64,000 bases of DNA from positions 105,918 through 169,917 of the forward strand of contig CAVTQG010000061.1 in the NCBI GenBank assembly GCA_963736785.1, in the 5' to 3' direction. Every line of letters begins with the position of its first letter. Position 1 is the stretch's first letter. This stretch comes from an uncultured Spirochaetota bacterium (GTDB taxonomy: Bacteria; Spirochaetota; Spirochaetia; SZUA-6; DRHE01). Shown here one piece after another: positions 2,216-58,665 of the stretch. Position numbers and translations under genes: made by a program. Under the pieces are notes generated by a model. That model was given only the letters and a program-made list of their open reading frames with translations. It was not told the DNA's origin and searched no databases.

Positions 2216-2238
2216 ATCGGGCGCCGCCGCCAGCTGCC

Positions 2239-3602: not shown

Positions 3603-3609
3603 GCACCAA

Positions 3610-18044: not shown

Positions 18045-18062
18045 GGCGCCAGAGCGCGCTAA

Positions 18063-18083
18063 GGGGCCGCAGTAGCGGCAGGT
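18063..18083. repeat. REP-like hairpin repeat, copy 1
   Basis: GGGGCCGCAGTAGCGGCAGGT; also at 35472, 35515 and inverted at 38741. Confidence 0.7.
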
Positions 18084-18157
18084 TAGTCCGGAAAAAAAGA
18101 CCCCGATCCCTTTACATGTCCCGGCATGAGTGCAATAATGGCGCTTCAACAACGCCT

Positions 18158-31903: not shown

Positions 31904-31923
31904 CGCGCCCAAGGCGGCCTCCT

Positions 31924-36126: not shown

Positions 36127-36159
36127 ATATTACTGATTTTATTATATTCAAGAATAGCC

Positions 36160-37183: not shown

Positions 37184-38067
37184 GCGGTCCGCCCGAGCGC
37201 AAGCCGGAGTGGCTGCGCATACGCCTCAACACCAGCCCGAGCTACGTCTTCCTCAAGCGCCTGGTGCGCGAAGAAGGCCTGCACACGGTCTGCGAGGAGG
37301 CGCGCTGCCCGAACCTGCAGGAATGCTGGGGCACGCACCGCACCGCCAGCTTCATGATCCTGGGAGATACCTGCACGCGCCGCTGCCGTTTCTGCGCCGT
37401 CAAGACGGGTCTGCCCCGCGCCGTGGATCGGCAGGAGCCCGAGCGGTTGGCCCTGGCGGTGCGGCGCATGGGCCTGCAGCACGTGCACGTAACCATGGTG
37501 AACCGGGATGACCTGCCCGATGGCGGGGCCTCCCTCATGGCGGCCACGGTGCGGGCCATCCGCCGGGACAACCCGGGCTGCTCGATAGAGGTGCTCTGTT
37601 CGGACTTCATGGGCGACCCGCAGGCCATCCGGCAGGTCGTGGACAGCCGCCCGGACATCCTGAGCCACAACCTGGAAACGGTGCGCCGGCTCACCCCGCT
37701 GGTGCGTTCGCATTCCGACTACGACCGCTCCCTGGCCTTCCTGCGCCTGGTGCGCGACAGCGACCCGGGCACGGTGACCAAGTCCAGCCTCATGCTGGGC
37801 CTGGGCGAAGGCCACGACGAGGTGGTGCAGGCCATGCGCGACTTGCGCCAGGCGGGCACGGACATGCTGAACCTGGGCCAGTACCTGCAGCCCAGCCGCA
37901 CCCACCTGCCGGTGGTCCGCTACTGGCCGCCGGAGGAGTTCGCCCGCCTGCGCAGCCTGGCCCTCCGCCTGGGCTTCCAGCACTGCGAGGCGGGGCCGCT
38001 GGTGCGCTCCTCCTACCACGCCGGACAGCAGCTCCAGGAGTTCCGGCAGCGCGCCGCGGAGGCCTGA
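37180..38067 (+). CDS. lipA: Lipoyl synthase
   Basis: [44 protein letters not shown]. Confidence 0.95.
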
Positions 38068-42146: not shown

Positions 42147-43280
42147 CTAGCTGAGATCCCGCGTGTAGACCCGATAGGTGCGGTAGTGCTCGGCGCCCCA
42201 GTTTTCGAGCAGGTTTCGTACCGGGTAGTTGTCTTCGATGATCCAGGAGAACTCCGCCCCGCGGTAGCCGGCTTCGAGGCCGCGCCGGTAGGTCTCGTAG
42301 ACTATCAATGCGTCGATGCCCTGGTTGTGGTAGTCACGGGTCACGCCCAGGATGGCCAGACGCAGGACATCCACCTTCTTCCGCCCCAGGAGCAGGCGGA
42401 AGATGCCAAAGGGCAGCAGCCGGCCGTTCATCTTGATGAGGATCTGGTTCACGTCGGGGAGCGGGATGCTGACGCCGATCAGCCTGCCCTCGGCCTCGGC
42501 GAGCAGCACGACCCGCGGATCGGCCACCAGGCGCAGATCGTTCGCCATGAAGTCGAACTCCTCGCGAGTCCACGGGACGAACCCCCAGTTCCTCTCCCAG
42601 GCCTGGTTGTAGACGTCTCGGATCCGTTCGACCTCCGCCTTGAAGTTCTTCTTCATGTCGATGGTGCGCAGGCTGACCTTCCGCTTCTTCTGCACGATCT
42701 CTGCCACCCGCCGGATCTTATCCGACATGGGGAGGCTTGAGGCGAGCATGCGGTAGCAGTAGAGGTCCTTCTCCTTCCGGAAGCCGCAGCCCTCGTAGAG
42801 AACCGGGTAGTATGGAAGATTGTAGCCCATCTGGATCATGGGAGGAATGTCGAAGGAGTCGATGAGCACACCCAGAATGTGGTCGGGCGATGGGTTCATG
42901 GGCCCCATGATCCGCGCCATGCCCCTGGCCTTGGCCCAGGCGGCGGCGGCGTCGAAAAGAGCGCGCGCCACCTCGAGGTCGTCGATCGCCTCGAAGAAGC
43001 CAAGGTAGGCGACCTTCTCCTTCTGGAACTGCACGTAGTTGTGGTCGAGAATCGCCGAAATCCGTCCGACGATCCGTGAATCGCGGTAGGCCAGGAAGTG
43101 CTGGCACTCCACGTGGGCCCAGAAGGGGTTCTTCTTCGGATCGATGGTGTCCTTCTCGCCGACGATGAGAGGCGGTACCCAGTTCTTGCTGGGATTGCGC
43201 CCGCGGTAGATCTTCCAGGGGAACATTATGAAACGTTTGATCTCAGCAGCCGTCCGGACAGGCTCCACGCTTACTGACAT
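42147..43280 (-). CDS. Double-GNAT acyltransferase, bacterial ceramide-synthase (bCerS)-like
   Basis: FIMFPWKIY...WVPPL...KNPF...FLAYRDSRIVGRISAI...GFFE...GPMNPS...YNLPYYP...EFSWIIEDN...YRTYRVY. Confidence 0.7.
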   Translation of the reverse strand: MSVSVEPVRTAAEIKRFIMFPWKIYRGRNPSKNWVPPLIVGEKDTIDPKKNPFWAHVECQHFLAYRDSRIVGRISAILDHNYVQFQKEKVAYLGFFEAIDDLEVARALFDAAAAWAKARGMARIMGPMNPSPDHILGVLIDSFDIPPMIQMGYNLPYYPVLYEGCGFRKEKDLYCYRMLASSLPMSDKIRRVAEIVQKKRKVSLRTIDMKKNFKAEVERIRDVYNQAWERNWGFVPWTREEFDFMANDLRLVADPRVVLLAEAEGRLIGVSIPLPDVNQILIKMNGRLLPFGIFRLLLGRKKVDVLRLAILGVTRDYHNQGIDALIVYETYRRGLEAGYRGAEFSWIIEDNYPVRNLLENWGAEHYRTYRVYTRDLS

Positions 43281-43489
43281 CACCCACCCCCACTCGACCT
43301 GGATTCCCCGGCCTGCGCCCGGAGTTTGCTTGCCCGGCGCAGGGGGTTGTGCTATGCAGAGGCCCGGTTATAGGTATAGCAAAGAGCTGCGGCGGACGCA
43401 ATACAGGCGGGCGTATCTACAGCCCATACCGGGGTGGATGGACGAAGCTGTCCAGGAGAATTACACTCACTGGCTTGAGAGGGATATCA

Positions 43490-44948: not shown

Positions 44949-45665
44949 TCAGCCCTGGAACCTCCACCACTCGAGCCTGGCGGGCCCGCCCTCCAGGCAC
45001 AGGGCTCCGACATAGCCCGGCGCCGGGCTGAAGTCGCGCAGCCACCAATCCTCCCCTTTGATCAGGGGCACCTGGAATCCGGTCGCCGAGTAGGCGGCCA
45101 CCGGGACCTCGAGACGGGAGAAGGAAGCCAGAAGGTCCAGTGCCAGCGCCTTGGCCGCGGCCTCGCGGCGGTTCCAGATCAGGAAGAAGGCCCGAGTGCG
45201 GTGCTCGCCGCTGTGCGACTCGACGAAGCCGCGCTCCTCGGCGGTGAAGATGTATGAGAGCACGGCCTGCATGGCCGGCAGCTCTCGAAACCTCTCGATG
45301 TCCACGCCGACCCGCTTCTGTTTGCTGACCGCGACCAGGGCCAGGTCTCCGGCATGGGAGAGGTTGAACTGCAATCCGTCCAGGTAGGGTTTTCCTGAGG
45401 GCCCGGTGGCCAGCCGCAGAGCCTGCGGGCGCTCCTGAAGGTAGGCGGCCAGGATCCTCCTCAGGGCGGCTCGAGCTGCGACCGAGCGCAGGCGGTCTGC
45501 GGGCCGGTGAAAACGCCGAGCCTCTAGTCTCTCTTCAGGGGAAAGGAGGCGCTCCAGGCCCGAAAGGCCCCTGGGCCCCGTCGAAAGAGCGACCAGCCAC
45601 AGGTGCAGGCAGCCCGGCCGCAGGCCAGGCCGCCTTGGCGGGTCCTCCCAGGGCGCGCCGTCCAT
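44949..45665 (-). CDS. Sfp-type 4'-phosphopantetheinyl transferase
   Basis: GPSGKP, FNLSHAGD, VGVDIE, WNRREAAAKA (WxxKEA variant). Confidence 0.9.
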   Translation of the reverse strand: MDGAPWEDPPRRPGLRPGCLHLWLVALSTGPRGLSGLERLLSPEERLEARRFHRPADRLRSVAARAALRRILAAYLQERPQALRLATGPSGKPYLDGLQFNLSHAGDLALVAVSKQKRVGVDIERFRELPAMQAVLSYIFTAEERGFVESHSGEHRTRAFFLIWNRREAAAKALALDLLASFSRLEVPVAAYSATGFQVPLIKGEDWWLRDFSPAPGYVGALCLEGGPARLEWWRFQG

Positions 45666-45745
45666 AACTGTCCATGGTAGGCAACCTCCCGCGTCTTGAC
45701 AAGCCGCCCGCGCTTCGGTTGAATAGCAAGAACTTGAAACAAAAC

Positions 45746-46995
45746 TTGAGAAATCCGCATGAAGTCCGGGTGGTGATCACGGGCATGGGAGCCATCACCC
45801 CCATTGGAAATACCGTTGCCGAGTACTGGGACAATCTCATCAAGGGCAAGTCGGGGGTGCGGCGCATCAGCAGCTTCTCCACGGAGGACTACTCCGTGCA
45901 GATTGCGGGCGAAATCGATCTTCCGGACGTGGGCCCATACTTCAAGGAACGCAAGATGGCCCGTAGGCTGGATCGCTATGTGGTTCTCTCCCAGATAGCG
46001 GGCACGCAGGCCATTCTGGATTCGGGGCTGGAGGTGGATAAGGCTCCGCACCGCTATGGCGCACTCATCGCCACCGGGGACGGCGGCATAGGGGCGCACT
46101 TCATCAACGCCAAACGCATCGTCCAGGACGGGATGCAGGCCACCTCCCCGTTCTTCGTCATGTGCATCCCCAACACCGCTTCCGGCTACCTGGCCATGGA
46201 GTGGAACCTGCAGGGACCCGGTTTCTCCGTGAACTCGGCCTGCGCTTCCGCAAATCATGCCTTCGCGGTGGCCAGCGTGATGATCAAGGCGGGCCTGGCC
46301 GACGCGATCTTCACGGGCGGGTCCGAGGCCCCGGTCTACCCCAACGCCCTGGCGGCCTTTGGCAACATCATGGCTCTGTCGGAGCGCAACGACTCGCCGC
46401 AGACCGCTTCCCGGCCCTTCGACAGGGAGAGAGACGGCTTCGTGCTCAGCGAAGGGGCCGGTGTGCTCTGCCTGGAGGAGTTGGAGCATGCCAGGCGTCG
46501 GGGAGCCAGGATCTACGCCGAGCTGACCGGCTACGGCCTGGCGACCGACGCCCATGACCTGGTGGCCCCCCACCCCGAGGCCAGGGGATCAGCGCAAGCC
46601 ATACAGAACGCCCTGGACGCCGCCGGCCTGAACTCGGAGCAGATCGATCTGATCAACTGCCACGCTACCTCCACCCCGCTGGGGGATCTGAGCGAGAGCA
46701 GAGCCATCGAGCGGGTCTTCAAGGAGTTGAGCGCCAAGACGCCGGCGCACAGCACCAAGTCGATGACGGGGCACCCGATGGGCGCAGCCAGCGCCATAGA
46801 GGCCATCGCGGTCATCCTGGCCATCCAGAGAGGGGTCATCCACCCGACCATCAACCAGTTCGAGCAGGACCCGAAGATCGGCCTCAACGTCGTGCGCAAC
46901 CGGCCCATGGAGGCAAAGGTCGACCATGTCCTGTCCAACGGCTTTGGCTTCGGGGGGCACAACGCTTCGGTGATAATCTCTCGGTTCCGGGCTGA
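45746..46995 (+). CDS. fabF: 3-oxoacyl-ACP synthase II (probable terminal frameshift; ORF track runs on to 47146)
   Basis: VVITGMG, SACASA catalytic Cys, HATST, KSMTGH, SNGFGFGGHN. Confidence 0.92.
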
Positions 46996-47523
46996 TCAGT
47001 CCGGGAAGCAGACCTCCCCAATAGCTACGCAAGCCACCTGGCCGCCGGCCACCACCTGGCCGATCATGGTGGCGAAAAACCCGTCATACTCCAGCTTTCT
47101 GGCTAAGAGAGTGAGCTCCTGGCCGGGCAGGACGGGGGCCAGGTAATGAGCCCCCAGGATGCGCGTGGCCATCACGCGCAGGGGGCGAGGTTCGGCCGGG
47201 GCCTCCAGGCTGCGGCTCTCCAGGAAGTAGTGCAGGCACAGGCCGAGCTGCCCGATCATCTCCACCTCCAGGCAGCCAGGGTACACGGGAGATCCGGGGA
47301 AGTGCCCGGCAAACACCGGATCGTCGGCCGGGATGGTGCGCGAGCCGGCGATGAGGCCCTCCTCGAAGGCGATGCCGGTCAGGCGGTCCAGGAGCAGGAA
47401 CGGCTCCCGGTGCGGCAGGATGCGCTTGATCCGCTCCCGGTCCCAGTCGAGGGGCTCGAGCCGGTCCGCGGGGGAGGCCAGGAGTCTCTTGCGGTGCTGG
47501 CGCAGAAGGGCGTCGGGATCCAC
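46996..47523 (-). CDS. FabZ/FabA-like hot-dog dehydratase
   Basis: LPHREPFLLLD, HFPGSPVYPGCLEVEMIGQ; GTG start at 47523. Confidence 0.85.
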   Translation of the reverse strand: MDPDALLRQHRKRLLASPADRLEPLDWDRERIKRILPHREPFLLLDRLTGIAFEEGLIAGSRTIPADDPVFAGHFPGSPVYPGCLEVEMIGQLGLCLHYFLESRSLEAPAEPRPLRVMATRILGAHYLAPVLPGQELTLLARKLEYDGFFATMIGQVVAGGQVACVAIGEVCFPD

Positions 47524-47534
47524 GGCAACGGGCT

Positions 47535-48785
47535 CTACCGGCCCTTGACGATGACGTCCTCGATGATGTTGAGGGCCGTGTCCATCTGCTCCCGGGTGAA
47601 CTGTGAGGACACGGAGATGCGGAAACGCCGGGATTCGGCCGGCACGGCCGGGAAGTCCACCGGCTGCAGGAACAGCCCCCGCCGCTGGATCTCCGCCGCG
47701 AAGTTCATCAGCTTTTCTCCCGAGGAGCCGATGATGATCGGGATGACCTGGGACTCGCTGTTGCCCAGGTCCAGCTTCAGATCCCTCAGGCCCTTGGCCA
47801 GGTACTTCACGTTCGCCCACAGCGCGTCCCTCAAGCTGGAGTCCCGGGTGGCCACCTCCAGGGCCTTCATCAGGCCGGCCACCACCGGAGGTGAGGGCGC
47901 GCAGGAGAAGTTCCACGGCGAGGAATAGCCCTTGAGGTAGTTGATGATGCCGGCGTTGGAGCACACGAACCCTCCCACGCCGCCGAAGGACTTGCTCAAG
48001 GTCCCGAAGCTCATGCCGATCTCGTGCTCCAGCCCGAAGTGCTCAGCCACGCCCCGCCCGTTGGGCCCGAACATGAGCGTGGAGTGGGCTTCGTCGATGT
48101 AGGTGGCCGCCTTGTGCTGCTTGCAGACCTCCAGGATCTCGGGGAGCCTGACCAGGTCCCCGTCCATGGAGTACACGCCCTCGAAGGCCACCAGCACCCG
48201 CTTGCCCTTGCTCTTCTCCAGCATCGAGTCCAGGGAGGCCGGGTCGTTGTGCTGGAAGAACAGCATCTTGGCCCCGGACAGGGTGCCGCCGTCGATCAGG
48301 CTTTTGTGGCACTTCTCGTCCAGGATGAGGACATCGCCCTTGCGCAGCAGGCCCTGGATGGCGCCGAGGTTCCCGCCCAGCCCGCTGGAGTACAGCAGGC
48401 AGTCCTCTTTCTGCTTGAAGGCGGCCAGCTGCCGGGCAAACTGCACGTGCAGGTCAAAGGTCCCGGAGAGCAGCGGAGCCCCGGAGGCGCCCAAGCCGTA
48501 GCGATCCAGAGCCTCCTTGGCCGCCTGGATGACCTCCGGATGGGAGGACAGCCCCAGGTAGTTGTAGGAGGTCATGTTGATGGTGCGCCGCCGCACGCCG
48601 TCCAGGCTCATGACCTCCGTGTCCGGCCGGGGGGCGGCCAGAAACTGCTGCCCGAAGAAGCGCATGGCGGACTGGATCTCCCGGTGGCCGATCCACTCAA
48701 GATAGTCGCTGGGGGGCGTGAGGACATCGGGGTTGTCGTTGAAGAAAAAGTCCGCCAGGCTGAACCGGAGCGCGTTCTCAGGCAT
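47535..48785 (-). CDS. PLP alpha-oxoamine synthase (acyl-ACP:amino acid C-acyltransferase)
   Basis: SYNYLGLS, PLLSGT, CHKSLIDG, EGVYSMDGD, DEAHS, GTLSKSFG, FPAVP. Confidence 0.88.
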   Translation of the reverse strand: MPENALRFSLADFFFNDNPDVLTPPSDYLEWIGHREIQSAMRFFGQQFLAAPRPDTEVMSLDGVRRRTINMTSYNYLGLSSHPEVIQAAKEALDRYGLGASGAPLLSGTFDLHVQFARQLAAFKQKEDCLLYSSGLGGNLGAIQGLLRKGDVLILDEKCHKSLIDGGTLSGAKMLFFQHNDPASLDSMLEKSKGKRVLVAFEGVYSMDGDLVRLPEILEVCKQHKAATYIDEAHSTLMFGPNGRGVAEHFGLEHEIGMSFGTLSKSFGGVGGFVCSNAGIINYLKGYSSPWNFSCAPSPPVVAGLMKALEVATRDSSLRDALWANVKYLAKGLRDLKLDLGNSESQVIPIIIGSSGEKLMNFAAEIQRRGLFLQPVDFPAVPAESRRFRISVSSQFTREQMDTALNIIEDVIVKGR

Positions 48786-49032
48786 CGACTTTGTTCGCGT
48801 ATTCCAGGAACTTGGTGGCCAGCTGGTCGATGTTGTTGATGTCCGCCAGCTCCGAGCGGGGCACCTTTATCTTGAGATCGCGCATGGAGGTGGACACCAC
48901 TTCGATCATATCCAGGCTGTTGGCCCCGTAGTCCTTCATGGATTTCTGGGGATCGATGCTGGCCGCGTCGATGTCGTCGATGTTCGACGCGATGTTCTTC
49001 TTGATCACCTCAACCACCTGCTCTTTGGTCAT
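48778..49032 (-). CDS. Acyl carrier protein (AcpK/donor-like)
   Basis: DYGANSLDMIEV phosphopantetheine site, 84 aa, acidic. Confidence 0.9.
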   Translation of the reverse strand: MTKEQVVEVIKKNIASNIDDIDAASIDPQKSMKDYGANSLDMIEVVSTSMRDLKIKVPRSELADINNIDQLATKFLEYANKVDA

Positions 49033-49035
49033 CTC

Positions 49036-49833
49036 CTACTCCTTCTCCATCAAGTATCTCATCATCGAATTATCCTGGAAAGGAAGCCCGTAGTCAACGC
49101 TGATGATCTGTCCGTTGACGGCGTCCAGCCACCCGCTGCACAGGGCCAGCACGGCCTTGCCGCAGTCCTGCGGGGTCAGGATCATCCGTGCCGCCCCCTG
49201 CTTTTCCATGTAGGAGAAGAACTCCTTTCCGAAGATAGCCCGGAAGGACTCGGTGTCGACGCTGCCGAAGCGCAGCACGTTCACCCTGCATCCCTCGGCG
49301 AAAAGGTGCACGGACAGGTATCGCGAGAAGAACTCCAGCAGCGCCTTGGAGGCGGCCACGAAGTCGTAGCCCCTGTAGAAGTGATCCGGGCCGTCGCTGG
49401 AGATGCCCAACACATATCGGGGGTAGCGGCCGAAGCGGGCCTTGATCCTGCGCGTGTAGTCGATGAGCGGCCAGGTGCTGTACTCGAGGGTCTTGAACAG
49501 GGAGCGCTTCTTGTAGTCCTCCAGGCTTTGAGTGCGCAGGGCGAAGCTCACGTTGCTGACGAAGATGTCGATGCCCTGGATGCTGCCGCCCAGCTCCGCC
49601 ATCAGGCGCTCGGTGTCCTGCTCCACGGCCGCATCGGCCTGGTGGAAGCCCGGCGGCGGCGCCCCCAGGGCCTCGAACCTCCCTGCCAGCTCGGCCAGGT
49701 CGACGCTGCCCCACTTGTAGGTCAGGAACACCCGAGCTCCGGCCTCGGCCAGCGCCAGGGCCGAGGCCAGGCCGATGCCCTTGGTGCCGCCCGTGATGAG
49801 AGCCGTCTTCCCACGCAGGTCCACGCCTACCAT
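49036..49833 (-). CDS. FabL/FabI-like enoyl-ACP reductase (SDR)
   Basis: TGGTKGIG; Y-x6-K active site YDFVAASK(ALLE). Confidence 0.75.
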   Translation of the reverse strand: MVGVDLRGKTALITGGTKGIGLASALALAEAGARVFLTYKWGSVDLAELAGRFEALGAPPPGFHQADAAVEQDTERLMAELGGSIQGIDIFVSNVSFALRTQSLEDYKKRSLFKTLEYSTWPLIDYTRRIKARFGRYPRYVLGISSDGPDHFYRGYDFVAASKALLEFFSRYLSVHLFAEGCRVNVLRFGSVDTESFRAIFGKEFFSYMEKQGAARMILTPQDCGKAVLALCSGWLDAVNGQIISVDYGLPFQDNSMMRYLMEKE

Positions 49834-49851
49834 GCCTTGCTCCTGCCTCCC

Positions 49852-50601
49852 TCAATCCGGGTACTGCTCTTCGATGGTCCGCCTCGTCTCCGGAAAAGAG
49901 AAGCTGATGCGATGCATCAGGTCTTCCTGCAGGCGGGCCTGGATCAGCAGCTTCTTCTTTCCGGCGCTCAAGGCGTTTTTGAGAAGAAACACCGACCGCC
50001 CGTCCTTCTCCGCCACCTGAGCGGCGATGTCCCGTGCCTTCGCCAGGACCTCACTCCTGGGCAGGATATAGTTGATGTGGGTTCCTTTGTTCTGCAGCTC
50101 GCTGCCCCGGAAGCGCTTGCCGGTGAGCATCATCTCGTTGGCCACGAACGGGCCTACCAGCTCCTGCAGCAGGGTGGTGCAGCCCATGCCCGGGGTGAAC
50201 CCCAGGCTCATGAAGACCGCACCGTAGCGGCTCTCGCGGGCGGCGATGACGATGTCGCAGCACAGGCCGACGGCCAGGCCCCCTCCGATGGCGTGGCCCT
50301 CCATGGCGGCGATCACGGGAAAGGGGGCTTCCAGAAGCCGCTCGCAGAGCACCAGGTCTGCCACCGCTGCCTTGCCGTCGCAGAGGTCCAGCAGGGCCTG
50401 CTTCTCCGCCCCGCCGCAGAACACGTCCTCCAGACCGTGCAGGACGAGCACCTTGGGCTTCAGCGTGTGCTCCAGCTCGTCCAGGGCCTGGAGAAAGTCC
50501 GCGATGAAGCCCGGGGAGAAGACGTTGCGCCCCTCGCGGTCGTCCATCTTCAGCCAGCCGACCCCGTCGGGGTCCCGGCTCGGCCTCATGCGCCCGCTCA
50601 C
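49852..50601 (-). CDS. Enoyl-CoA hydratase fold, ECH2 decarboxylase (PksI-like)
   Basis: FCGGAEK, GHAIGGGL, FMSLGFTPGMG, RFRGSEL, EDLMH; GTG overlaps the upstream stop. Confidence 0.85.
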   Translation of the reverse strand: MSGRMRPSRDPDGVGWLKMDDREGRNVFSPGFIADFLQALDELEHTLKPKVLVLHGLEDVFCGGAEKQALLDLCDGKAAVADLVLCERLLEAPFPVIAAMEGHAIGGGLAVGLCCDIVIAARESRYGAVFMSLGFTPGMGCTTLLQELVGPFVANEMMLTGKRFRGSELQNKGTHINYILPRSEVLAKARDIAAQVAEKDGRSVFLLKNALSAGKKKLLIQARLQEDLMHRISFSFPETRRTIEEQYPD

Positions 50602-51443
50602 GGTGTATCCTCCTTCTCCGGCTCGCGCCATCGCGCCATGGGTCCCTCGGGCTTGAAGCGCGAAAACCAGGGCGGCAGGTCCCCGTCCCGGAAGGCCCTC
50701 ACCCCCTGCAGGGCCGCCGGGTCGCGCAGCAGGCGCAGCAGACGGCGGCGGGCCAGGGCTGCAGCCTGCCCCGGGGTCTTGCCGATCAGCTCGGCGGTGA
50801 AGTCCTTGGCCTGCGAAAGCGCCTGAGGGGAGGAACGAAAAATGCGGCCGAAAATCTCGCGCAGCCGCTGCTCGGCCAGTTGCGCCGAGGGCAGAAGCTC
50901 ATCCACCAGGTTCAGGCGCAAGGCCTCGGACGCCGGGATGCGCATCGAGCTCAACACCAGGTAGCGCGCCTTCTGAGGCGGCACCCGCAGGGCCAGCAGA
51001 TAGGGAAGCACGTTGGCCGGGATCAGTCCGAAGAGCACCTCGCCCAGCTCGAAGCTGGCCGCCTCGGTGGCCACCACGATGTCACAGGCGCACACCAGCC
51101 CCAATCCGCCCGCCTTCACCTCGCCCTGCACCAGGCAGGCCACGGGCAGCGGCGCGCGGAACATGGCGGCCAGCAGATCGGCGTAGCGCCCCACGGCCCT
51201 CTTCGCTTCGGCCTGGCTGCCGCGGCCGGCATGGGCTGCCAGGCGGCCCAGATCCATGCCCAGGCAGAAGGCCGCCCCGCCGGAGCGCAGCAGGACGGCC
51301 CGGGCTTGCGGGTCCCGCACGGAGCGCTCGAAGGCAGAGGCCAGCTCCTCCACGCTTTGAGGGTCCAGCAGGTTGCCGTGTTCCGCATCCTTGAGGGTGA
51401 TGAGCGCCACCCCGGCGTCCATTTGCTGTTCGACCAGTGACAC
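50598..51443 (-). CDS. Enoyl-CoA hydratase fold, ECH1 dehydratase (PksH-like)
   Basis: FCLGMDL, GEVKAGGLGLVCACD, GEVLFGLIPANVLPYL. Confidence 0.85.
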   Translation of the reverse strand: MSLVEQQMDAGVALITLKDAEHGNLLDPQSVEELASAFERSVRDPQARAVLLRSGGAAFCLGMDLGRLAAHAGRGSQAEAKRAVGRYADLLAAMFRAPLPVACLVQGEVKAGGLGLVCACDIVVATEAASFELGEVLFGLIPANVLPYLLALRVPPQKARYLVLSSMRIPASEALRLNLVDELLPSAQLAEQRLREIFGRIFRSSPQALSQAKDFTAELIGKTPGQAAALARRRLLRLLRDPAALQGVRAFRDGDLPPWFSRFKPEGPMARWREPEKEDTP

Positions 51444-51449
51444 CTTGAG

Positions 51450-52679
51450 TCAGCTCCATTCGTAAGTGCGGTAGAAATCCTTCACTTCCCGCAGCACCAG
51501 GCGCCTGCGGCCTCGATAGTGCCGCTCGTACCAGCCTCCGGGCATGGAGAAGTCAGGAGTGAAGTCCGGTTTCTCGATGGAGGCTTCCCGCATCTTTTCG
51601 ATGGTCTCGTATTCTTCCACGCTCACTTCGCGGCGGGCGTCCAGGGCTTTGTCGATTTCCATCCGGCCGACCTCTTCGCGGGCCCCCGCGCACAGCCGGC
51701 CGCTGTAGAACTCTCCTATGGCTCCGGAGCCGTAGGCGAAAAAGCTGACGCGGTCGCCGGCTTTGAGGTCGGGCACGCCCATGACCATGCCGCAGATGCC
51801 CAGGAAATTGCTGGCCCCATAGGTGGAGCCGACCCTGCGGGCGTACAGCAGGGACGGCAGGACCTTGCGCCTGAAGCTCTCCTGGACCTCGGCCTTGCTG
51901 CGCGGCCGGGCCAGATTGCACACCGTGCGGTGGGCCTGGAAGGCCATGCCGGGGAAGGGGGTGTGGTAGCAGCTCTGGGCGAAATAGGCGTCGAAGTCCA
52001 GGGACTGGCCGTTTCTGCTCAGGTAGTCCTGATACGAGCCCTCCAGGGCGTCCAGGTAGCTGTACAGGCTGACCTCGTTGTTGCCGACCTCGTGGCGGGC
52101 GCTGGGCCGGAAAGTATCGTAGACGTCCGAGGTCCAGTCGCCTTTCGCCTGCAGATCGTACTCGATCACGCGGGGGGTGTCGCTCACCAGCGCCGCGGAC
52201 GCCACCCCGCCCAGGACGAACTCTTCCTTCGCGCCCAGGTGCAGGCGGGAGTAGTCTGTCGAGATCACCAGGGCCTTCCTGCCGTGGTTCAGGCCGGCGG
52301 CGATCCAGTTCAGGGCCGAGTCCAAGGCGGCCACTCCGCTGTAGCAGGCGTGCTTGGTCTCGAAGTTGCGCACGTTGGAAGGCAGCCCCAGAGCGCCATG
52401 GATGTTCGTGCTGATCGGCTTGCCGAAGTCCACCGAGCTCTCGGTGCCGACCACCAGCAGGCCGATGGCCTGCCGATCCTCATCCTCCAGCAGGGGCCCG
52501 GCCGCGTTGGCCGCCATGGTTACGGTGTCCTCATAGAGGGGGTTCAGGGAGCGGGTGTCGATGAGGAAGTCGGCGACCACCTTCTGCGGATCCAGTCCCC
52601 GGGCCGCGGCCAGTTTCTTCTGGTCCAGGTACAGAGAGCAGCCGTACAGGTTGATCTTCTCTATGCCAACGCTCTTCAT
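51450..52679 (-). CDS. HMG-ACP synthase (PksG-like beta-branching enzyme)
   Basis: VGIEKIN, EDTVT, TESSVDFGK, FETKHACYSG, SLYSYLD, YHTPFPGM, FAYGSG. Confidence 0.88.
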   Translation of the reverse strand: MKSVGIEKINLYGCSLYLDQKKLAAARGLDPQKVVADFLIDTRSLNPLYEDTVTMAANAAGPLLEDEDRQAIGLLVVGTESSVDFGKPISTNIHGALGLPSNVRNFETKHACYSGVAALDSALNWIAAGLNHGRKALVISTDYSRLHLGAKEEFVLGGVASAALVSDTPRVIEYDLQAKGDWTSDVYDTFRPSARHEVGNNEVSLYSYLDALEGSYQDYLSRNGQSLDFDAYFAQSCYHTPFPGMAFQAHRTVCNLARPRSKAEVQESFRRKVLPSLLYARRVGSTYGASNFLGICGMVMGVPDLKAGDRVSFFAYGSGAIGEFYSGRLCAGAREEVGRMEIDKALDARREVSVEEYETIEKMREASIEKPDFTPDFSMPGGWYERHYRGRRRLVLREVKDFYRTYEWS

Positions 52680-52688
52680 GATTCACCT

Positions 52689-53441
52689 CTATGGCGCGTA
52701 GCTCAGCCCGCCGGCGACGCGGATCACCTCTCCGTTGATGAAACCGGCTTCCTCGGTCGACAGATAGCGCACCAGGCTGGCGATTTCCTCCGCGGTGCCG
52801 ACGCGCTTCAGCGGGCAGTATTCCATCCAGATCTGCTGCAGCTTGCTGGCCATGTGGTTTTCGGTCATGTCCGTTTCCACGTAGCCCACAGTGACCACAT
52901 TGGAGGTGATGCCCCTGGGGCCGTATTCGCGGGCCAGGGTCTTGGTGAGACCGATCAGCCCCGCCTTGGCCGCGGCGTAGTTGGCCTGTCCGCTGGAGCC
53001 CTCCTGGGCCAGCGAGGAAATGTTGATGATCCGGCCCCAGCGCTTGCCCATCATGTGCGCCAGGAAGCTGCGGATGACGAAGAAGGGGCCGGAAAGGTCG
53101 GCGGCGATCACCTCCAGCCAGTCCTCGTCACTCATCATGGCGGCCACGTTGTTGCGCACGATGCCGGCGTTGTTGACCACCACCCCGACGGTGCCAAACT
53201 CCTCGATGACCTGCTCGGCCACCTGCTCTACCTGGGCCGAGTCCTTCACGTCCATACGGTAGGCGCGCACCGCAACGGCCGAACCCAGCTCCCGTGCCAT
53301 GGCCTGGGTCTCGCGCATAGCGGCCTCGTTGCCCACGTAGGTGAAGGCGGTCGGAATCCCTTCCTTGACCAGGCGCAGAACGATGGCCCGGCCGATGCCA
53401 CGTGAGCCACCGGTAACGAATGCGGCCGCTGCTTCTGCCAT
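52689..53441 (-). CDS. 3-oxoacyl-ACP reductase (FabG-like SDR)
   Basis: TGGSRGIG, VNNAG, ISS, NYAAAKAG. Confidence 0.9.
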   Translation of the reverse strand: MAEAAAAFVTGGSRGIGRAIVLRLVKEGIPTAFTYVGNEAAMRETQAMARELGSAVAVRAYRMDVKDSAQVEQVAEQVIEEFGTVGVVVNNAGIVRNNVAAMMSDEDWLEVIAADLSGPFFVIRSFLAHMMGKRWGRIINISSLAQEGSSGQANYAAAKAGLIGLTKTLAREYGPRGITSNVVTVGYVETDMTENHMASKLQQIWMEYCPLKRVGTAEEIASLVRYLSTEEAGFINGEVIRVAGGLSYAP

Positions 53442-53444
53442 CGC

Positions 53445-54728
53445 CTACCCCTCGTAGCGCCGGATCAGGCTGCAGGCGTTGATGCCGCCGAAGCCGAAGG
53501 AGTTCTTCAGCATGCACCGGATCTGGTGTTCCACCGGGCCGGCCGCGCAGACCTCCAGGTCTATCTCCGGGTCCAGGCGATCGATGTTGATGGTCGGGTG
53601 AAGCCGGCCGTGCTTCATCTGCAGCAGGGCACCGATGGTCTCCACGATGGGCGCGGCCCAGCAGGTGTGTCCGAGCATGGACTTGGCGGCGTTGAGCTTC
53701 AGGCGGGGGGCGTGGTCCCCGAAGGCCCGCTTGATGGCCCTGATCTCCTCCAGGTCCCCGGCCGGAGTGCCGGTGGCATGGCAGCTCACGTAGTCCACCT
53801 CCGTCGGGTCCGTGCCCGTGGAGCGCAGCAGCTCATGGATGAGGCGGCCCTGGGTTTCCGCAGCCGGAGCCGGCAGGTGGCTGGCGTTGGCGTTGGCCCG
53901 CACACCCAGTACCTCGCCGTAGATGGGAGCGCCGCGGCGCAGGGCCTGCTGCAGCTCTTCCAGCAGGAGCGTCCCGGCTCCGTGGGAATACACGAAGCCG
54001 GCGCGGCCGACGTCGAAGGGCCGCGAGGCCTTCTCGGGATGGTCCTGGTATTCCGGCTTGACTACCACGGCGTTGATCACCACCGAGGCCTGGATGTCGA
54101 GGGGAGATATATCGAACAGGCCACCGGCCACGACCGCGGTATCGCTTTCGCCGGTCACAATATCGCGGAAGCCTTCCCGGAGGGCCAGGTTGCCGCTGGC
54201 GCAGGCCCCGCCCACCGTGAGGGTCGGGCCCTGCAGGCCCAGGACTTCGGTGATAAGGGCGGGGACATTGGGGTCGATGGCCTCCACGGCTCCCAAGGGG
54301 TCCATGGACTCCGTATCGACCAGGAACCTCCTGGTGTTCTCGTAGATGTAGTTGGAGTTCAGGTTGTGGCCGCCCACAATCACGCTGGCGCGCAGAGGGT
54401 CGACACCTTTTGCGAACAGGCCGGCGTCCAGCCAGGCCGCCAGGCTGCACAGCACCGCAGCCTTGGCCGAGAAGGAGGTGGTGCGGAACAGCTTCTTCAC
54501 TTTCTTGAGCCCCTCGGCCCCAAGCTGGTCGCGGAAGCGCTCCATGGCGGCCTGGAAATCGTAGTCACCCAGGTCGCCTCCGATCTTGCACTCGATGTCC
54601 TTCATGTCCAGGGAGCGCCAGCGCCGGATCCCTGACCGGCCTTGGATCAGGGCCTGGTAGTAGCCTTCCAGGGTGTCGCCCAGGGGGTTGAGGGTTCCCA
54701 TGCCGGTGATGACCACGCGGCGTTTCAT
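53445..54728 (-). CDS. Free-standing ketosynthase (PksF/FabF-like) retaining the catalytic Cys
   Basis: VVITGMG, TVGGACASG, CHATGT, KSMLGH, KNSFGFGG. Confidence 0.9.
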   Translation of the reverse strand: MKRRVVITGMGTLNPLGDTLEGYYQALIQGRSGIRRWRSLDMKDIECKIGGDLGDYDFQAAMERFRDQLGAEGLKKVKKLFRTTSFSAKAAVLCSLAAWLDAGLFAKGVDPLRASVIVGGHNLNSNYIYENTRRFLVDTESMDPLGAVEAIDPNVPALITEVLGLQGPTLTVGGACASGNLALREGFRDIVTGESDTAVVAGGLFDISPLDIQASVVINAVVVKPEYQDHPEKASRPFDVGRAGFVYSHGAGTLLLEELQQALRRGAPIYGEVLGVRANANASHLPAPAAETQGRLIHELLRSTGTDPTEVDYVSCHATGTPAGDLEEIRAIKRAFGDHAPRLKLNAAKSMLGHTCWAAPIVETIGALLQMKHGRLHPTINIDRLDPEIDLEVCAAGPVEHQIRCMLKNSFGFGGINACSLIRRYEG

Positions 54729-55000
54729 TTTGAGAACCATAGCCTTTTTCCCGGCGCTGCTCAAGGGTCCGGCGAGCTCGCCCGGGCCGCTCAATCCACC
54801 CGCAGCCGGTACTCACCTTGCCCACCCCCAGGGCTTTGTTCGCCGTGGTGGCCAGTTCGCGCAGCGTTTCAGACGGACTTGGGAATGGTGCGGTGCGCAA
54901 CGTTTGCAGAGAGCCACCAGAGTAGGACGCTCAGACGGTCTGGGCATCCTCAAGGGACGGGTATCATGGGCTTTGCCCTCGCACCGATGGGTTGCTTATC

Positions 55001-55399
55001 CTACCCGGAGGACCACCGGGCGCTTATGCCGGAATGGCGCAACTGGATGAACCGGGCGTTGTAATAACGCGCCGATTGCGTGGAGACAACCCTGAGCATG
55101 ACCCGCCTTAGCTCGCCGGCCCGTCTGCTCAGCTCCCTTCGTTCCTCCGGCCGCAAGCCCACGAATCGGAAGACCGCTGGGCTGTCCTGGTCCTCGAGCA
55201 TGACCTGGTGCTTGTTCACCACGATTCTTCCCCGGATCTCCACCACCTGCCCTTTCTGGTACAAAGGCACATGCCGTTCGGGCCTTTTGGGCCTTTCGGG
55301 GCTGCGAACCGCGAAGAAAAAGCTTTCGCAGCCGGCAAGACCGAGGGTCAGCGCTATGCCAGCAATGAGCAGGATGCTGCGTTTTGCGTTCTTGTGCAT
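55001..55399 (-). CDS. Putative lipoprotein
   Basis: MHKNAKRSILLIAGIALTLGLAG-C lipobox. Confidence 0.65.
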   Translation of the reverse strand: MHKNAKRSILLIAGIALTLGLAGCESFFFAVRSPERPKRPERHVPLYQKGQVVEIRGRIVVNKHQVMLEDQDSPAVFRFVGLRPEERRELSRRAGELRRVMLRVVSTQSARYYNARFIQLRHSGISARWSSG

Positions 55400-55682
55400 G
55401 TCGTATCTCCTGTATTTCCTATGCCCGCTGTTCGCCGAAACTCTGCGCTCCCCTATTCTCGGGAGTCGGAATGTTAGCAGCCGCCGTTTTCGCCAGAATA
55501 ACGAAACTACCGGCAGGACCAAGCGCCACCGGCGCCAGAACCCAATCCGCTGACAGCGAGCATCTTATCATGGGAGGAAGAACCGGGGTTTGCGAAAGCA
55601 ACAGGTACGGATTCTTGGTTTCCTTCATTCAGCCTGCTCGATCCTTTCATATGAATTGCCTGAGGCCCGGAGCGCCGTAATC

Positions 55683-55724
55683 ATAATAGTAAAACGCCCG
55701 CGGCTGTATGTTCGGTGGCACACT
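55683..55724 (-). promoter_or_regulatory. Putative Crp-type activated promoter (degenerate copy)
   Basis: TGTTCGGTGGCACACT (12/16 match to the other sites) with TATTAT -10 at nearly the same spacing. Confidence 0.4.
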
Positions 55725-55850
55725 GCCTTCGAACAGCGCTGAGCGGCGGCTGCGGGAGGCTCGTTGGGGGATCGACCTGGCGGGCAATAGCAAAGACATA
55801 TAGCTCGCAGGCGACGTTCTCGTTCCACGCTGCGAGCTAGAAGTCTCTAG

Positions 55851-56000
55851 TTAGAAACGCAGTCTCGGAATAATAGCCCACAAGCCCACAATAATCAAAT
55901 AAATACCCACAGTGTAGCGCAGAAACCTGGGATATATGAGCACGAGGATTCCAAAAATAAGAGTTATAATACCCCATATCAGACCAATTGGTTGCCACAT
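55851..56000 (-). CDS. DUF3096-like small membrane protein (49 aa)
   Basis: MWQPIGLIWGIITLIFGILVLIYPRFLRYTVGIYLIIVGLWAII; GGAG RBS upstream. Confidence 0.7.
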   Translation of the reverse strand: MWQPIGLIWGIITLIFGILVLIYPRFLRYTVGIYLIIVGLWAIIPRLRF

Positions 56001-56118
56001 AATATCTTCCACTCCCTTCTTATATAGATATTCTCCCGTAGACCCCGACCGATGACGAATCCTTCTAACCCGGAGAATTGCTTCCTGCCTGCGAGCCCTC
56101 CTATCGGATCGAGTTCTA

Positions 56119-56277
56119 CTATCTGCGCCTGCCGTAGCGCATGACCAGCCAGACAACCACGAGGATCAGCCCGACTACGAGCGCGACGTAGACAAAGCCG
56201 CCCAGCGTGGTCGAGGTGACAAGTCCCAGAAGCCACAATACCAAGAGGATGATGCCGATGATCAGAAGTATTTGCAT
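56119..56277 (-). CDS. lmo0937/DUF5670-like small membrane protein (52 aa, absent from the ORF track)
   Basis: MQILLIIGIILLVLWLLGLVTSTTLGGFVYVALVVGLILVVVWLVMRYGRRR*; AAGGAG RBS. Confidence 0.75.
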   Translation of the reverse strand: MQILLIIGIILLVLWLLGLVTSTTLGGFVYVALVVGLILVVVWLVMRYGRRR

Positions 56278-56433
56278 GCTAAAACTCCTTCCCCCTTCCG
56301 TCGAAAGCCATTCCGCGACCTTTTTATAGTGCTACATCCAGAACAGAACCGAGGTACCCAACGGCACCTCATGTCCCTCCTTTCCTCCTCTCCTGTCTGG
56401 ACTCGCCCGATAAGATCCGGAGGGCCGTACTCA

Positions 56434-56492
56434 GTATCCACAGCTTGTATTATGCGAGAAATCCCGAACGCGGTCTGTGCGGTAGCGCACGT
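56434..56492 (-). promoter_or_regulatory. Class-II-type promoter with palindromic operator, copy A
   Basis: TGTGCG-GTAG-CGCACG centred about 41.5 nt upstream of the predicted +1; CATAAT -10; gapless homology to 58401-58459. Confidence 0.7.
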
Positions 56493-56717
56493 ACTGATTC
56501 GGGCGCCAGGGGAAGAGAGCATGGGGAAGGTGATCCGCATTCGCAGGGGGGTCGCATAGTCATCAAGCCCAAAGGCTGTGTAACCGTGTGTTGGTCGAGT
56601 GTGACTGAGCTGGTTTGCAGAGCCGCCGTTGAGCCGACCTGCCGGAAGCTTGACAGATTCATGGCCCCCGATTATGCTCAAGCTGCTATCCTTACCGGAC
56701 GCTTTTGGAGGTTGCCC

Positions 56718-57455
56718 ATGTGCAGCATGCCCAGCCAACCAAAACCGCCTGATTTTCTTCAGAACCACTTGCTCAGGGTCCTGCCAGATCCTGAACGCGA
56801 GCGCCTGATGCGCCACATGGCACTGGTCCCGATGCCGCTCGGTAAGGCCCTGTACGAGTCCGGGGACCGGTTGAGTCACGTCTATTTCCCCACCACCGCC
56901 ATCGTGTCCCTGCTGTTCGTGATGGAGAATGGCGCGTCCGCCGAAATTGCCGTGGTCGGCAACGAGGGTATTGTAGGCATCGCCCTATTCATGGGTGGCG
57001 AAACCACGCCGAATCGGGCCGTGGTGCAGAGCGCGGGCAGCGCCTATCGGCTGGACGGACAGTTGCTCAAGCAGGAGTTCGAGCGCTCTAGGGCGGTGCA
57101 GCATCTGTTGCTGCGCTACACCCTGGCCCTGCTGAGCCAGATGGCGCAGACCGCCGTCTGCAATCGGCACCATACGGTAGACCAGCAACTCTGTCGTTGG
57201 CTGCTGCTCAGTCTGGACCGGTTGCCCGCCAACGAGTTGAGCATGACCCAGGAACTGATCGCCAACATGCTGGGAGTACGGCGCGAGGGGGTTACCGAGG
57301 CCGCCGGAAAATTGCAGGCTGCCGGATTGATTCGGTACAGCCGCGGCCGCATCACCGTACTGGATCGACCGGGCCTGGAAGCGCGGGTTTGCGAGTGCTA
57401 CGAGGTTGTCAGGAATGAGTTCCTCCGCCTGCTGCCCGATGTGATCGCGATGTGA
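56718..57455 (+). CDS. Crp/Fnr-family transcriptional regulator
   Basis: NHLL, VYFPTT, EIAVVGNEG, MTQELIANMLGVRREGVTEAAG HTH, CECY; GGAGG RBS. Confidence 0.93.
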   Translation: MCSMPSQPKPPDFLQNHLLRVLPDPERERLMRHMALVPMPLGKALYESGDRLSHVYFPTTAIVSLLFVMENGASAEIAVVGNEGIVGIALFMGGETTPNRAVVQSAGSAYRLDGQLLKQEFERSRAVQHLLLRYTLALLSQMAQTAVCNRHHTVDQQLCRWLLLSLDRLPANELSMTQELIANMLGVRREGVTEAAGKLQAAGLIRYSRGRITVLDRPGLEARVCECYEVVRNEFLRLLPDVIAM

Positions 57456-57574
57456 CTGAGGGCATGCGCATCGTATTCTGTCACGATGCCTCCCCTATCC
57501 GCGTATGGGGCTTCGGCGCCGAGGGGAAAGCCCATCCTCAACGCCGTTTATGAGTCCATCGAACTTTTTGCGAC

Positions 57575-58360
57575 CTAGCGCGTTTTCCAGTAGAACTCCG
57601 GCTCCAGCATGTAGCTTCGGCCGGGGGCGAAGTCGAAGTCCGCGGAAAAGGAGAACCCGTTAGAGGTGATACGCAGATTATGCCTGCCCGCTGGTAGACT
57701 GAAGCTGAGAGTGCTGTAGGACTGCCCGTCCACGAACAACCGGATCTGGTCTCTGTTGTCCCGGTCTCTGTTGTCCCGGTCCCTGTTGTCCCGGTCGTCC
57801 AGGAAGCCCGGGGGGATGACGACCCGCACCGACACGGAGTTGGCTTGCAGCCGGGCGTTCACCGCCGTATTGCCCGCCACGCTCACCGCGGTCAGATAGT
57901 CCTGGTAGCCGGGGGCAGACACGCGCACCAAGTAGTTGCCCCTGTCCACCTTCATGGAGGCAGGGGCCGTGCCCATCGGGGTGTTATTCACGAACACCTG
58001 GGCGCCGGCCACGTTGGCGGTGACCCTCAGGTTGTAGCGCCCGCGCGGCGGCCGCTGCTGCGAAATCCCGCCTTCCGGATCCAGGTTCACACGTAGGTTC
58101 AGCGGGTTGGAAGTCATGTTGATGATCGTTCCGAAGGACTGGAAGTTATCCATAGCAACCTGGACCCGGTAGTTTCCGGGCCGCAGCAGGGCGGAGAAGA
58201 TTGGCTTAGTGTAGCCTGCCAACTTGCCGTTCAGGTAGACTCTGGCGCCGGTGACGTTGCAGAGGATGGAAAAGGCCCCCCGCGCCTGGGCGAACGCCGG
58301 CGCGACGCTCGCGGCCAGGAACGCCGCCAGGAGAAGTTACAGAACCATTCTTTTCTTCAT
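57575..58360 (-). pseudogene. PEGA-domain exported protein with in-frame TAA at codon 8
   Basis: MKKRMVL*LLLAAFLAASVAPAFAQ signal peptide; PEGA repeats NVTGARVYLNG and NVAGAQVFVN, VSAPGYQDY. Confidence 0.7.
57748..57792. repeat. 15-bp tandem repeat x3 (encodes RDNRD repeats)
   Basis: GGTCYCTGTTGTCCC three times, in frame. Confidence 0.85.
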
Positions 58361-58400
58361 AGCCTTCTTTCATCAACCGGAATCGTGAGTGCCGCACTTA

Positions 58401-58459
58401 GCATCCACAGCTCGAATTTTACGAAAAAATTCCAACGCGCTCTGTGCGGTAGCGCACGT
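58401..58459 (-). promoter_or_regulatory. Class-II-type promoter with palindromic operator, copy B
   Basis: Identical TCTGTGCGGTAGCGCACGT with a TAAAAT -10 at the same spacing as copy A. Confidence 0.7.
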
Positions 58460-58665
58460 TGCGTTGTCCTAGCATGTATTAAAATAAAATAGAAACGACT
58501 GTTAGATGACACCTTGGAGGCGAAAGCGAACAAAACCAGGGAAGATGCCAAGACTGCGTGTGAAGACTCCCGGGGGCATCTCGCAATGGTAACTTGCAAT
58601 GTATTACCGGCCATTCACTCGAGGTCAGCAATATGCCTCAAAAAATTTTTCAAGGGGGGACGAAC

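Follow-up and report, generated by a model that had tools for sequence, protein, structure and literature searches.

What does a set of β-branching enzymes do when it is encoded in one operon with the parts of a fatty-acid synthase (FAS) and an α-oxoamine synthase (AOS), and with no polyketide synthase (PKS) nearby? This question is raised by a locus in a 64 kb stretch of DNA (C61:105918-169917, hereafter the window; coordinates given without a contig or locus name are window positions) from a spirochaete of soil or sediment. The assembly comprises 3.97 Mb in 63 contigs and is estimated to be 70% complete; the operon's 3-hydroxy-3-methylglutaryl (HMG) synthase (HMGS) is 94% identical to that of the close relative 'Spirochaetes bacterium RBG_16_67_19' (Spirochaetota). 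The enzyme families, the integrity of the catalytic residues, the conserved linkage of the genes and the absence of a PKS were all observed, and they make it likely that a private type II system builds a branched acyl chain on an acyl-carrier protein (ACP) and hands this acyl-ACP to the AOS. The product would probably be a methyl-branched base of the sphingoid type, derived from acetate only. The narrower version, in which the branch is iso-terminal and would arise via isovaleryl-ACP, is put forward tentatively, at a little under an even chance.

Nine genes were identified using Pfam and NCBIfam on the minus strand at 46996-54794, in the order ketosynthase (KS1), FabG-type ketoreductase (KR), HMGS, ECH1, ECH2, enoyl-ACP reductase (ER), ACP, AOS and FabZ-like dehydratase (DH). 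The intergenic gaps in this order are 3, 9, 6, -34, 18, 3, -8 and -4 nt, the negative values at the end corresponding to an overlap of 8 nt between the ACP stop and the AOS start and of 4 nt between the AOS stop and the DH start. Since the gaps range from -34 to +18 nt, the nine genes were taken to form an operon with translational coupling. An earlier account made from the letters alone (the sequence-only reading) had described nine tightly packed or overlapping minus-strand genes at 46996-54728, and the coordinates and the domain matches bear this out. The identities that it had named also match those found here: the HMGS is nearest to CurD/PksG, ECH2 passes the PRK07110 model and the AOS is nearest to bacterial serine palmitoyltransferase (SPT). 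Its FabZ-like gene, taken as a 322-residue open reading frame (ORF) overlapping the AOS gene, had to be shortened to about 180 residues. No PKS or nonribosomal peptide synthetase was found within the 64 kb window, as had been stated. The catalytic residues that were examined are kept in 95-100% of the sequences (34-65 orthologues per protein).

The HMGS (51450-52679; Pfam HMG_CoA_synt N- and C-terminal domains) contains the Glu, Cys and His of the catalytic triad, which are kept in 98, 100 and 100%, respectively, of 65 orthologues. In a comparison with solved structures it scored 255 bits against CurD, 231 against PksG, 216 against Myxococcus HMGS and 205 against Staphylococcus aureus mvaS. 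In a maximum-likelihood tree it clusters with two PKS-embedded HMGSs, and a branch with support values of 100/99 parts it from the mevalonate-type HMGSs, including a fusion of HMGS with an FMN_dh domain that is also encoded in the window. The operon HMGS is thereby predicted to be an ACP-dependent enzyme of the β-branching type belonging to the PKS clade, and not an enzyme of the mevalonate type. ECH1 (50598-51443; ECH_1, 2.6e-41) is a candidate crotonase-fold dehydratase for the conversion of HMG-ACP to 3-methylglutaconyl-ACP; its top NCBIfam model is PRK07112 (139 bits, under the cutoff of 250), which we take to be built on PksH. ECH2 (49852-50631) is a crotonase-fold protein predicted to decarboxylate 3-methylglutaconyl-ACP to 3-methylcrotonyl-ACP, and passes the NCBIfam model PRK07110 (260 bits, cutoff 215), presumably built on PksI. 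PksI is also its nearest structure; His240 of ECH2 aligned to the catalytic His230, both oxyanion Gly residues are present and the catalytic His recurs in 98% of 56 orthologues. ECH1 has an Asp and a Glu where the motifs would place Asp68 and Glu137 of PksH, and these are kept in 95 and 98% of sequences, respectively. The roles of the catalytic residues in PksH and PksI were taken from PMC7501309.

The ketosynthase in the cassette position, KS1 (53445-54728; Pfam ketoacyl-synt N- and C-terminal domains), has an ORF that is open up to a TTG at 54794, with the likely start at the ATG at 54728 (MKRRVVITGMG). Its top NCBIfam model is PRK07103 (325 bits, under the cutoff of 445), which is assumed here to have been built on PksF. 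In the free-standing KS of PKS cassettes the catalytic Cys is replaced by Ser and the enzyme only decarboxylates malonyl-ACP. In KS1 the Cys-His-His triad is intact (TVGGACASG, CHATGT and KSMLGH), and GGACAS(G/A) and both His motifs occur in KS1 and in about 55 orthologues from all of the phyla, in contrast to the PKS-embedded cassette KS of locus L070 in the relative G029, which has GGASASG, i.e. Ser. Because KS1 keeps the Cys and both His motifs it is expected to condense, and it is not regarded as a PksF-type decarboxylase.

The remaining chain-building functions are encoded as discrete proteins. The KR (52689-53441; adh_short_C2, 1.8e-57) is a FabG-type 3-oxoacyl-ACP reductase that scored 252 against TIGR01830 (cutoff 297.75) and the Ser, Tyr and Lys of which are conserved in 57 orthologues. 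The ER (49036-49833; adh_short_C2, 2.5e-34) is a FabL/FabI-like enzyme of the short-chain dehydrogenase/reductase (SDR) type; it carries YDFVAASK, the Tyr-x6-Lys motif of FabI/FabL, with the Tyr and Lys present in 100% of 54 orthologues, and its top NCBIfam model is FabL (94 bits, under the cutoff of 328). The dedicated ACP (48778-49032; PP-binding, 8e-09) has a GANSLD motif, the Ser of which is found in 100% of 34 orthologues, and the sixth residue after this Ser is not Trp. Its top NCBIfam model is PRK07117 (59 bits, cutoff 79), which we believe to be built on AcpK, and its identity to the PKS-cassette donor ACP in G029 is 36%. The DH (46996-47538; FabA domain, 4e-17; about 180 residues) has an N-terminal extension of about 35 residues and scored 72-78 bits against the FabZ models, which is below cutoff; 98% of 50 orthologues retain its His and Glu. 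In G046, G047, G048 and G041 a cluster-type DH orthologue is present in addition to the housekeeping FabZ. A phosphopantetheinyl transferase (PPTase) of the Sfp/HetI type (44949-45665, minus strand; ACPS and AASDHPPT_N) lies close to the operon; it scored 120 bits against the HetI model, below cutoff, and is linked to the cluster in 13 loci of the Spirochaetota group. A FabD-like acyltransferase (AT) is encoded inside the operon in L061, L012, L019, L020 and about 30 Myxococcota loci, and was also seen in L050. Discrete and intact KS, KR, DH, ER and ACP together with a PPTase, with the AT drawn from other versions of the cluster, are what would be expected of a type II FAS.

The AOS (47535-48785; Aminotran_1_2, 1.8e-49) is an SPT-like pyridoxal phosphate enzyme with the motifs SYNYLG, DEAHS and GTLSKSFG. 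Against solved structures it scored 260 bits for Sphingobacterium multivorum SPT, 223 bits for Thermus BioF/Kbl, 184 bits for CFAT and 109 bits for CqsA, and its Lys and His recur in 100% of 41 orthologues. By sequence it is a divergent paralogue. Three AOS paralogues are present in the assembly beyond that of the operon, and the copy on contig C31 is Kbl-like by its sequence motifs. A second AOS in the window (18158-19780, plus strand) scored 320 bits against S. multivorum SPT (3A2B) over 317 residues and is more canonical than the operon AOS. This SPT-like gene spans about 18.2-19.3 kb; its reading frame is broken near 19.1 kb and continues from there into fabZ with no intervening stop, all inside a 1057-residue ORF at 16607-19780. 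Another paralogue, on contig C48, is likewise divided between two frames, and the breaks in these two genes suggest indel errors in the assembly. Since single-base indels are found in these two AOS paralogues and at the KS2 stop described below, individual frame details should be read with caution.

A second ketosynthase, KS2 (45674-47146, plus strand), is a cluster-linked FabF paralogue that is convergent with the operon. It scored 469 bits against NCBIfam PRK07314 (cutoff 387) and 484 against TIGR03150 (cutoff 493.75). Both the FabF and the Sfp PPTase that the sequence-only reading had placed beside the operon are thus present, the PPTase on the same strand as the operon, but the FabF gene is on the opposite strand. 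Cassette-bearing relatives carry a KS2-type KS (about 160-174 bits) beside KS1 and also a housekeeping FabF (about 181-200 bits). In the clusters of the Spirochaetota group the KS2-type gene always lies near KS1; the Nannocystaceae clusters have KS1 only. An assignment of KS2 as the housekeeping FabF was therefore rejected, given the separate, higher-scoring FabF of the relatives and the constant proximity of KS2-type genes to KS1. The last 50 codons of KS2 (46985-47146) are an unconserved read-through beyond the end of its orthologues ('...SRFRG*'): at about 46990 a run of G is one G short compared with loci L003 and L008, by which the conserved TGA stop of KS2 is lost. In L003 and L008 the palindrome CTGATCAG is common to the KS2 stop and to the stop of the convergent FabZ-like gene. 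The missing G may be a true frameshift or else an indel of the assembly. An origin of KS2 from a type I PKS was considered from the 50-residue tail and a weak KAsynt_C_assoc match and was rejected, since the tail results from the missing G at the stop.

In order to follow the cluster in other organisms, one genome per species was scanned with the HMGS as the only query, which gave 67 loci. All nine genes lie within 10 kb in 40 of the 67, and this gene arrangement is far beyond chance. The nine-gene carriers are Spirochaetota, candidate division FCPU426, a metagenome-assembled Aminicenantes genome, and Nannocystaceae and other Myxococcota; the Myxococcota versions (44-50% identity) have a rearranged gene order and include those of the cultured Nannocystis, Enhygromyxa and Plesiocystis. 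Occurrence is patchy, the cluster being present in 11 of 41 close relatives. Conservation of the linkage between the AOS and the cassette had been set as a test beforehand, and the linkage was found in at least four phyla. The block ECH2-ER-ACP-AOS stays together even in the complete 2.4 Mb chromosome of G048 (Spirochaetia), in which the pathway is scattered: HMGS and ECH1 are at L025, the ECH2-ER-ACP-AOS block is at 2.226 Mb, a FabF-like KS is at 2.210 Mb, a low-scoring KS taken as KS1-like is at 1.10 Mb and a cluster-type FabZ is at 1.46 Mb. As all of the parts are retained although dispersed, the set appears to act as a functional unit without a single operon. In L024 and L026-L028 (including Candidatus Haliotispira prima) the pair HMGS and ECH1, accompanied in L024 by ECH2, is found in an unrelated context. 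In two Myxococcota loci an OEP-family outer-membrane efflux protein occupies the position of the AOS (L031, 4387-5847; L048, 4407-5867), with a GNAT-family protein and an epimerase still encoded upstream.

The Nannocystaceae clusters also hold an NAD-epimerase-family reductase and a GNAT beside the AOS, and that of Nannocystis a second, tandem ER. In the window a GNAT-family protein of 378 residues (42147-43283, minus strand; a single Pfam Acetyltransf_1 region, 3.5e-07) is a candidate N-acyltransferase. Its homologues (36-52% identity) are internal to the operon in L018-L020 and L061, and in Nannocystaceae they lie next to it; the tie of the GNAT to the pathway in the present genome is weak. 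Its identification as a bacterial ceramide synthase found no named counterpart in NCBIfam or the PDB, and the matches in large databases were described as 'N-acetyltransferase' only, a very large family. A stretch of 7 kb on contig C60 (C60:85831-92713) contains genes for an MMPL/RND-like transporter, a frameshifted GNAT paralogue and a member of the NAD-epimerase family. It was considered as a second ceramide locus with GNAT and epimerase and was set aside because its context is unconvincing; it may be another lipid-related locus.

The following pathway is proposed for the cluster. The Sfp-type PPTase would activate the ACP and a FabD-type AT would load malonyl, as judged from domain identity. 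KS1 would decarboxylate malonyl-ACP to acetyl-ACP and then condense to give acetoacetyl-ACP, to which the HMGS would add acetate with formation of HMG-ACP. ECH1 would dehydrate HMG-ACP to 3-methylglutaconyl-ACP, ECH2 would decarboxylate the latter to 3-methylcrotonyl-ACP and the FabL/FabI-type ER would reduce this to isovaleryl-ACP. KS2 and/or KS1, with the KR, DH and ER of the cluster, would then elongate this primer to an iso-branched long acyl-ACP; elongation is included because a private KR and DH are conserved. The ACP-coupled AOS would condense the acyl-ACP with an amino acid, for which L-serine is the most probable choice, and thereby yield a 3-keto iso-branched sphingoid base, which the GNAT and a reductase may convert to a ceramide-like lipid. 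We infer every substrate in this scheme, as well as the order of the steps, the chain length, the position of the branch and the amino acid, from the predicted enzyme functions. The iso-terminal version is preferred on three grounds: the nearest HMGS structure is CurD, an initiation-type KS1 is paired with an elongation-type KS2 in Spirochaetota, and iso fatty acids occur in Nannocystaceae. The last ground is circumstantial, iso-C15:0 and iso-C17:0 being major fatty acids in some relatives within the Nannocystaceae (PMC9960870).

Several observations weigh against this proposal. Neither the branch position nor the chain length nor the amino acid is deducible from sequence. The AOS falls under all NCBIfam cutoffs (NF047600, 313 against 640; NF047599, 284 against 500; NF047603, 241 against 670) and shares no more than about 35% identity with the more canonical SPT-like gene or with a Kbl-like paralogue; AOS specificity is, moreover, not set by a few first-shell residues (PMC13692747). 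No AOS is adjacent to the cassette in L021 or in six informative Myxococcota loci, the loci without one including L031, L033, L039, L048 and L065, and in L003 and L008, the closest relatives, the downstream flank holds no GNAT homologue. The single ACP resembles donor (AcpK-type) ACPs, so that the donor and acceptor roles are ambiguous, and no AT domain was found in the 70%-complete assembly. An isovaleryl primer alone would leave the KR and DH unnecessary, and elongation on the private ACP therefore has to be assumed.

If the operon were an ordinary trans-acting β-branching set, its enzymes would work for a modular (trans-AT) PKS with genes at another place in the genome. The top models of KS1, ECH1, ECH2 and the ACP (PRK07103, PRK07112, PRK07110 and PRK07117, assumed above to represent PksF, PksH, PksI and AcpK) would agree with this, as would the incompleteness of the assembly. 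A related genome of the same order, G029, does contain a very large modular PKS (L070; G029:C154:72300-87622) with 49 KS domains and ORFs of up to 8370 residues, in which a classical cassette (ACP, Ser-type KS and HMGS) is embedded. The HMGS of that cassette is, however, only 40% identical to the operon HMGS and belongs to a different lineage, and its KS is of the Ser type. A tblastn search of the 3.97 Mb, 70%-complete assembly detected no KS beyond KS1 and KS2. Near-complete carriers of the cluster (G007, 97% complete; G006; G040; G021) have 3-4 KS genes each, all in ORFs of ordinary size, and on the complete chromosome of G048 there are three KS genes and no more, of 424-451 residues. The search for a trans-AT PKS elsewhere, which had also been fixed as a test in advance, thus found none in the assembly, in the four near-complete carriers or in the complete G048, and a trans-AT PKS as host of the cassette was ruled out on the KS counts and the absence of an AT in this assembly together with the KS counts of the relatives. 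We regard service to a PKS as extremely improbable.

The other alternatives keep most of the machinery and differ in its product. With the same enzymes and the same hand-off to the AOS, the methyl group could lie near the head group, if the HMGS acted in the last cycle on a long β-ketoacyl-ACP and so led to a 3-methyl acyl-ACP, or be repeated along the chain in a polymethyl, isoprenoid-like pattern, if it acted in several cycles in alternation with KR and DH. PKS-type HMGSs normally act on long β-ketoacyl-ACPs, KR/DH and HMGS/ECH1/ECH2 are both conserved and would compete for one intermediate, Nannocystis has its two tandem ER paralogues, and the persistence of the ECH2-ER-ACP-AOS block in G048 is as expected if the ER product goes to the AOS. 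CurD, the nearest solved HMGS, acts on acetoacetyl-ACP, no programming of a late single-cycle switch or of an alternation is known in dissociated systems, and the KS1 and KS2 pair of Spirochaetota suits a scheme in which a primer is made and then elongated. A non-terminal methyl group is accordingly considered unlikely, at roughly one half of the weight given to the iso-terminal branch. Its most extreme form, in which the HMGS and KR/DH would work in alternate cycles to give a mevalonate-independent 3,7,11-trimethyl 'pseudo-isoprenoid' sphingoid base from acetate, is very unlikely; if true, such a base would be a new membrane-lipid class common to spirochaetes and Nannocystaceae. A small product is also improbable. 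Here isovaleryl-ACP or a short branched acyl-ACP would be condensed with an amino acid to an α-aminoketone, serving as a signal of the CqsA/LqsA kind or dimerizing to a pyrazine, with export by a MATE transporter. The AOS gene does follow directly after those for ER and ACP, a MATE transporter is encoded 2 kb from the operon and AOS enzymes such as CqsA produce signals. Nevertheless, CqsA is distant from the operon AOS by the scores given above (109 bits against 260 for SPT), the MATE linkage is conserved in no related locus and the Nannocystaceae cluster is accompanied by GNAT and epimerase; the KR, DH and second KS would moreover lack a role, in spite of their conservation and intact catalytic residues. 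Finally, the cassette might be a counterpart, bound to ACP, of the Aib route of Myxococcus and supply isovaleryl primers for bulk iso-fatty acids independently of leucine, the AOS having a separate, BioF/Kbl-like job. The loci without an adjacent AOS would fit such a supply, as would the similar scores of the AOS against the BioF, Kbl and SPT models, all below cutoff, and the iso-C15:0 and iso-C17:0 of the Nannocystaceae relatives (PMC9960870). Against this, the AOS gene adjoins the cassette across phyla in at least 40 loci and overlaps with that of the ACP, and in G048, where the first site holds HMGS and ECH1 only, it is still found with ECH2-ER-ACP. There are also no biotin genes near the operon, and the assembly has three further AOS paralogues, among them the Kbl-like copy on C31. 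A bulk primer supply is thus held to be scarcely probable, and the hand-off of a branched acyl-ACP to the AOS stays the preferred interpretation.

Each part of the proposed pathway has a known counterpart. The PKS cassettes of bacillaene (PksF/AcpK/PksG/PksH/PksI) and curacin (CurB-CurF) consist of the same five protein families, and in curacin initiation acetoacetyl-ACP is converted via HMG-ACP and 3-methylcrotonyl-ACP to isovaleryl-ACP, the same chemistry as is predicted here. The operon differs from these cassettes in having neither a modular PKS nor tandem acceptor ACPs, in a KS that keeps Cys instead of Ser, in a single ACP without the Trp that flags branching, and in joining type II KR, DH and ER with an SPT-like AOS. 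In the Myxococcus Aib route (MvaS, LiuC, AibA/B and AibC) an HMG thioester made from acetate is converted via 3-methylglutaconyl and 3-methylcrotonyl to isovaleryl. That route is CoA-bound and uses a decarboxylase resembling glutaconate CoA-transferase, a reductase of the MDR type and an HMGS common with the mevalonate pathway, whereas the operon route would be ACP-bound, with decarboxylation by ECH2, reduction by an SDR enzyme and an HMGS of the cassette type that differs from the mevalonate HMGS of the window. In its function the operon may parallel the Aib route without being a member of it.

With the bacterial ceramide pathway (Spt, bCerS and CerR) the operon has in common an SPT-like AOS beside a dedicated ACP and, next to the AOS of Nannocystaceae, a GNAT together with a reductase of the NAD-epimerase family, these two being assigned at the family level. 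In Caulobacter the AcpR/AasR/Spt ceramide pathway makes the long-chain base in an acyl-ACP-dependent manner (PMC9386255; PMC11324152). The operon differs in that the acyl-ACP would be assembled de novo by a private FAS containing a branching cassette and not loaded by an acyl-ACP synthetase, and in its divergent AOS. In Pseudomonas fluorescens MYb115 the PfSgaAB system, an iterative type I PKS together with an AOS that shows SPT activity, leads to sphingolipids (PMC12134224). It resembles the operon in having dedicated chain-building machinery and an adjacent SPT-like AOS that releases a 3-keto base; SgaA is, however, a single iterative type I megasynthase without a β-branching cassette, whereas the operon is dissociated and includes HMGS, ECH1 and ECH2. 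Full-text searches of the literature found no description of an HMG-CoA synthase (HCS) cassette or β-branching combined with SPT, sphingolipids, AOS or Nannocystaceae. HCS cassettes, type II FASs, SPT-like AOSs, ACP-dependent Spt and PKS-fed SPT are all known; their combination is not, namely a cassette that stands alone, has a KS expected to condense, is set within a dissociated FAS and ends in an AOS.

The window has a G+C content of about 68%, with drops to 0.52 at 2001-4000 and to 0.55-0.60 at 54000-62000 (elsewhere ∼0.68). A mevalonate block comprises HMG-CoA reductase (30593-31912, minus strand), a polyprenyl synthase (31924-33024, minus strand) and the above-mentioned fusion (33109-35457, plus strand), a protein of 782 residues in which a mevalonate-type HMG-CoA synthase is joined to an FMN-dependent dehydrogenase domain that is probably a type 2 isopentenyl diphosphate isomerase. 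It is followed by a single 650-residue ORF (36115-38067, plus strand) that combines an Fe-S carrier ATPase of the Mrp/NUBPL type (ParA and FeS_assembly_P) with a radical-SAM domain resembling lipoyl synthase.

β-Branching HMGS cassettes have been regarded as a tailoring device of modular PKSs, and the chains of bacterial sphingoid bases are thought to be drawn from the general fatty-acid pool or, in one recent case, to be made by an iterative PKS. If the proposed pathway is correct, it would constitute a third route, in which a private dissociated FAS that has absorbed a cassette hands a methyl-branched chain to an SPT-like enzyme. It would explain iso- or methyl-branched amino lipids that are made without branched-chain amino-acid primers, and would offer a simple type II system for the study of the competition between HMGS and KR over a β-ketoacyl-ACP. 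The cluster would also represent a new class for natural-product mining tools. The question is directly testable, since the culturable Nannocystis, Enhygromyxa and Plesiocystis carry the orthologous cluster, and the predicted producers of sphingolipid-type compounds would extend to Spirochaetota, FCPU426, Aminicenantes and Nannocystaceae.

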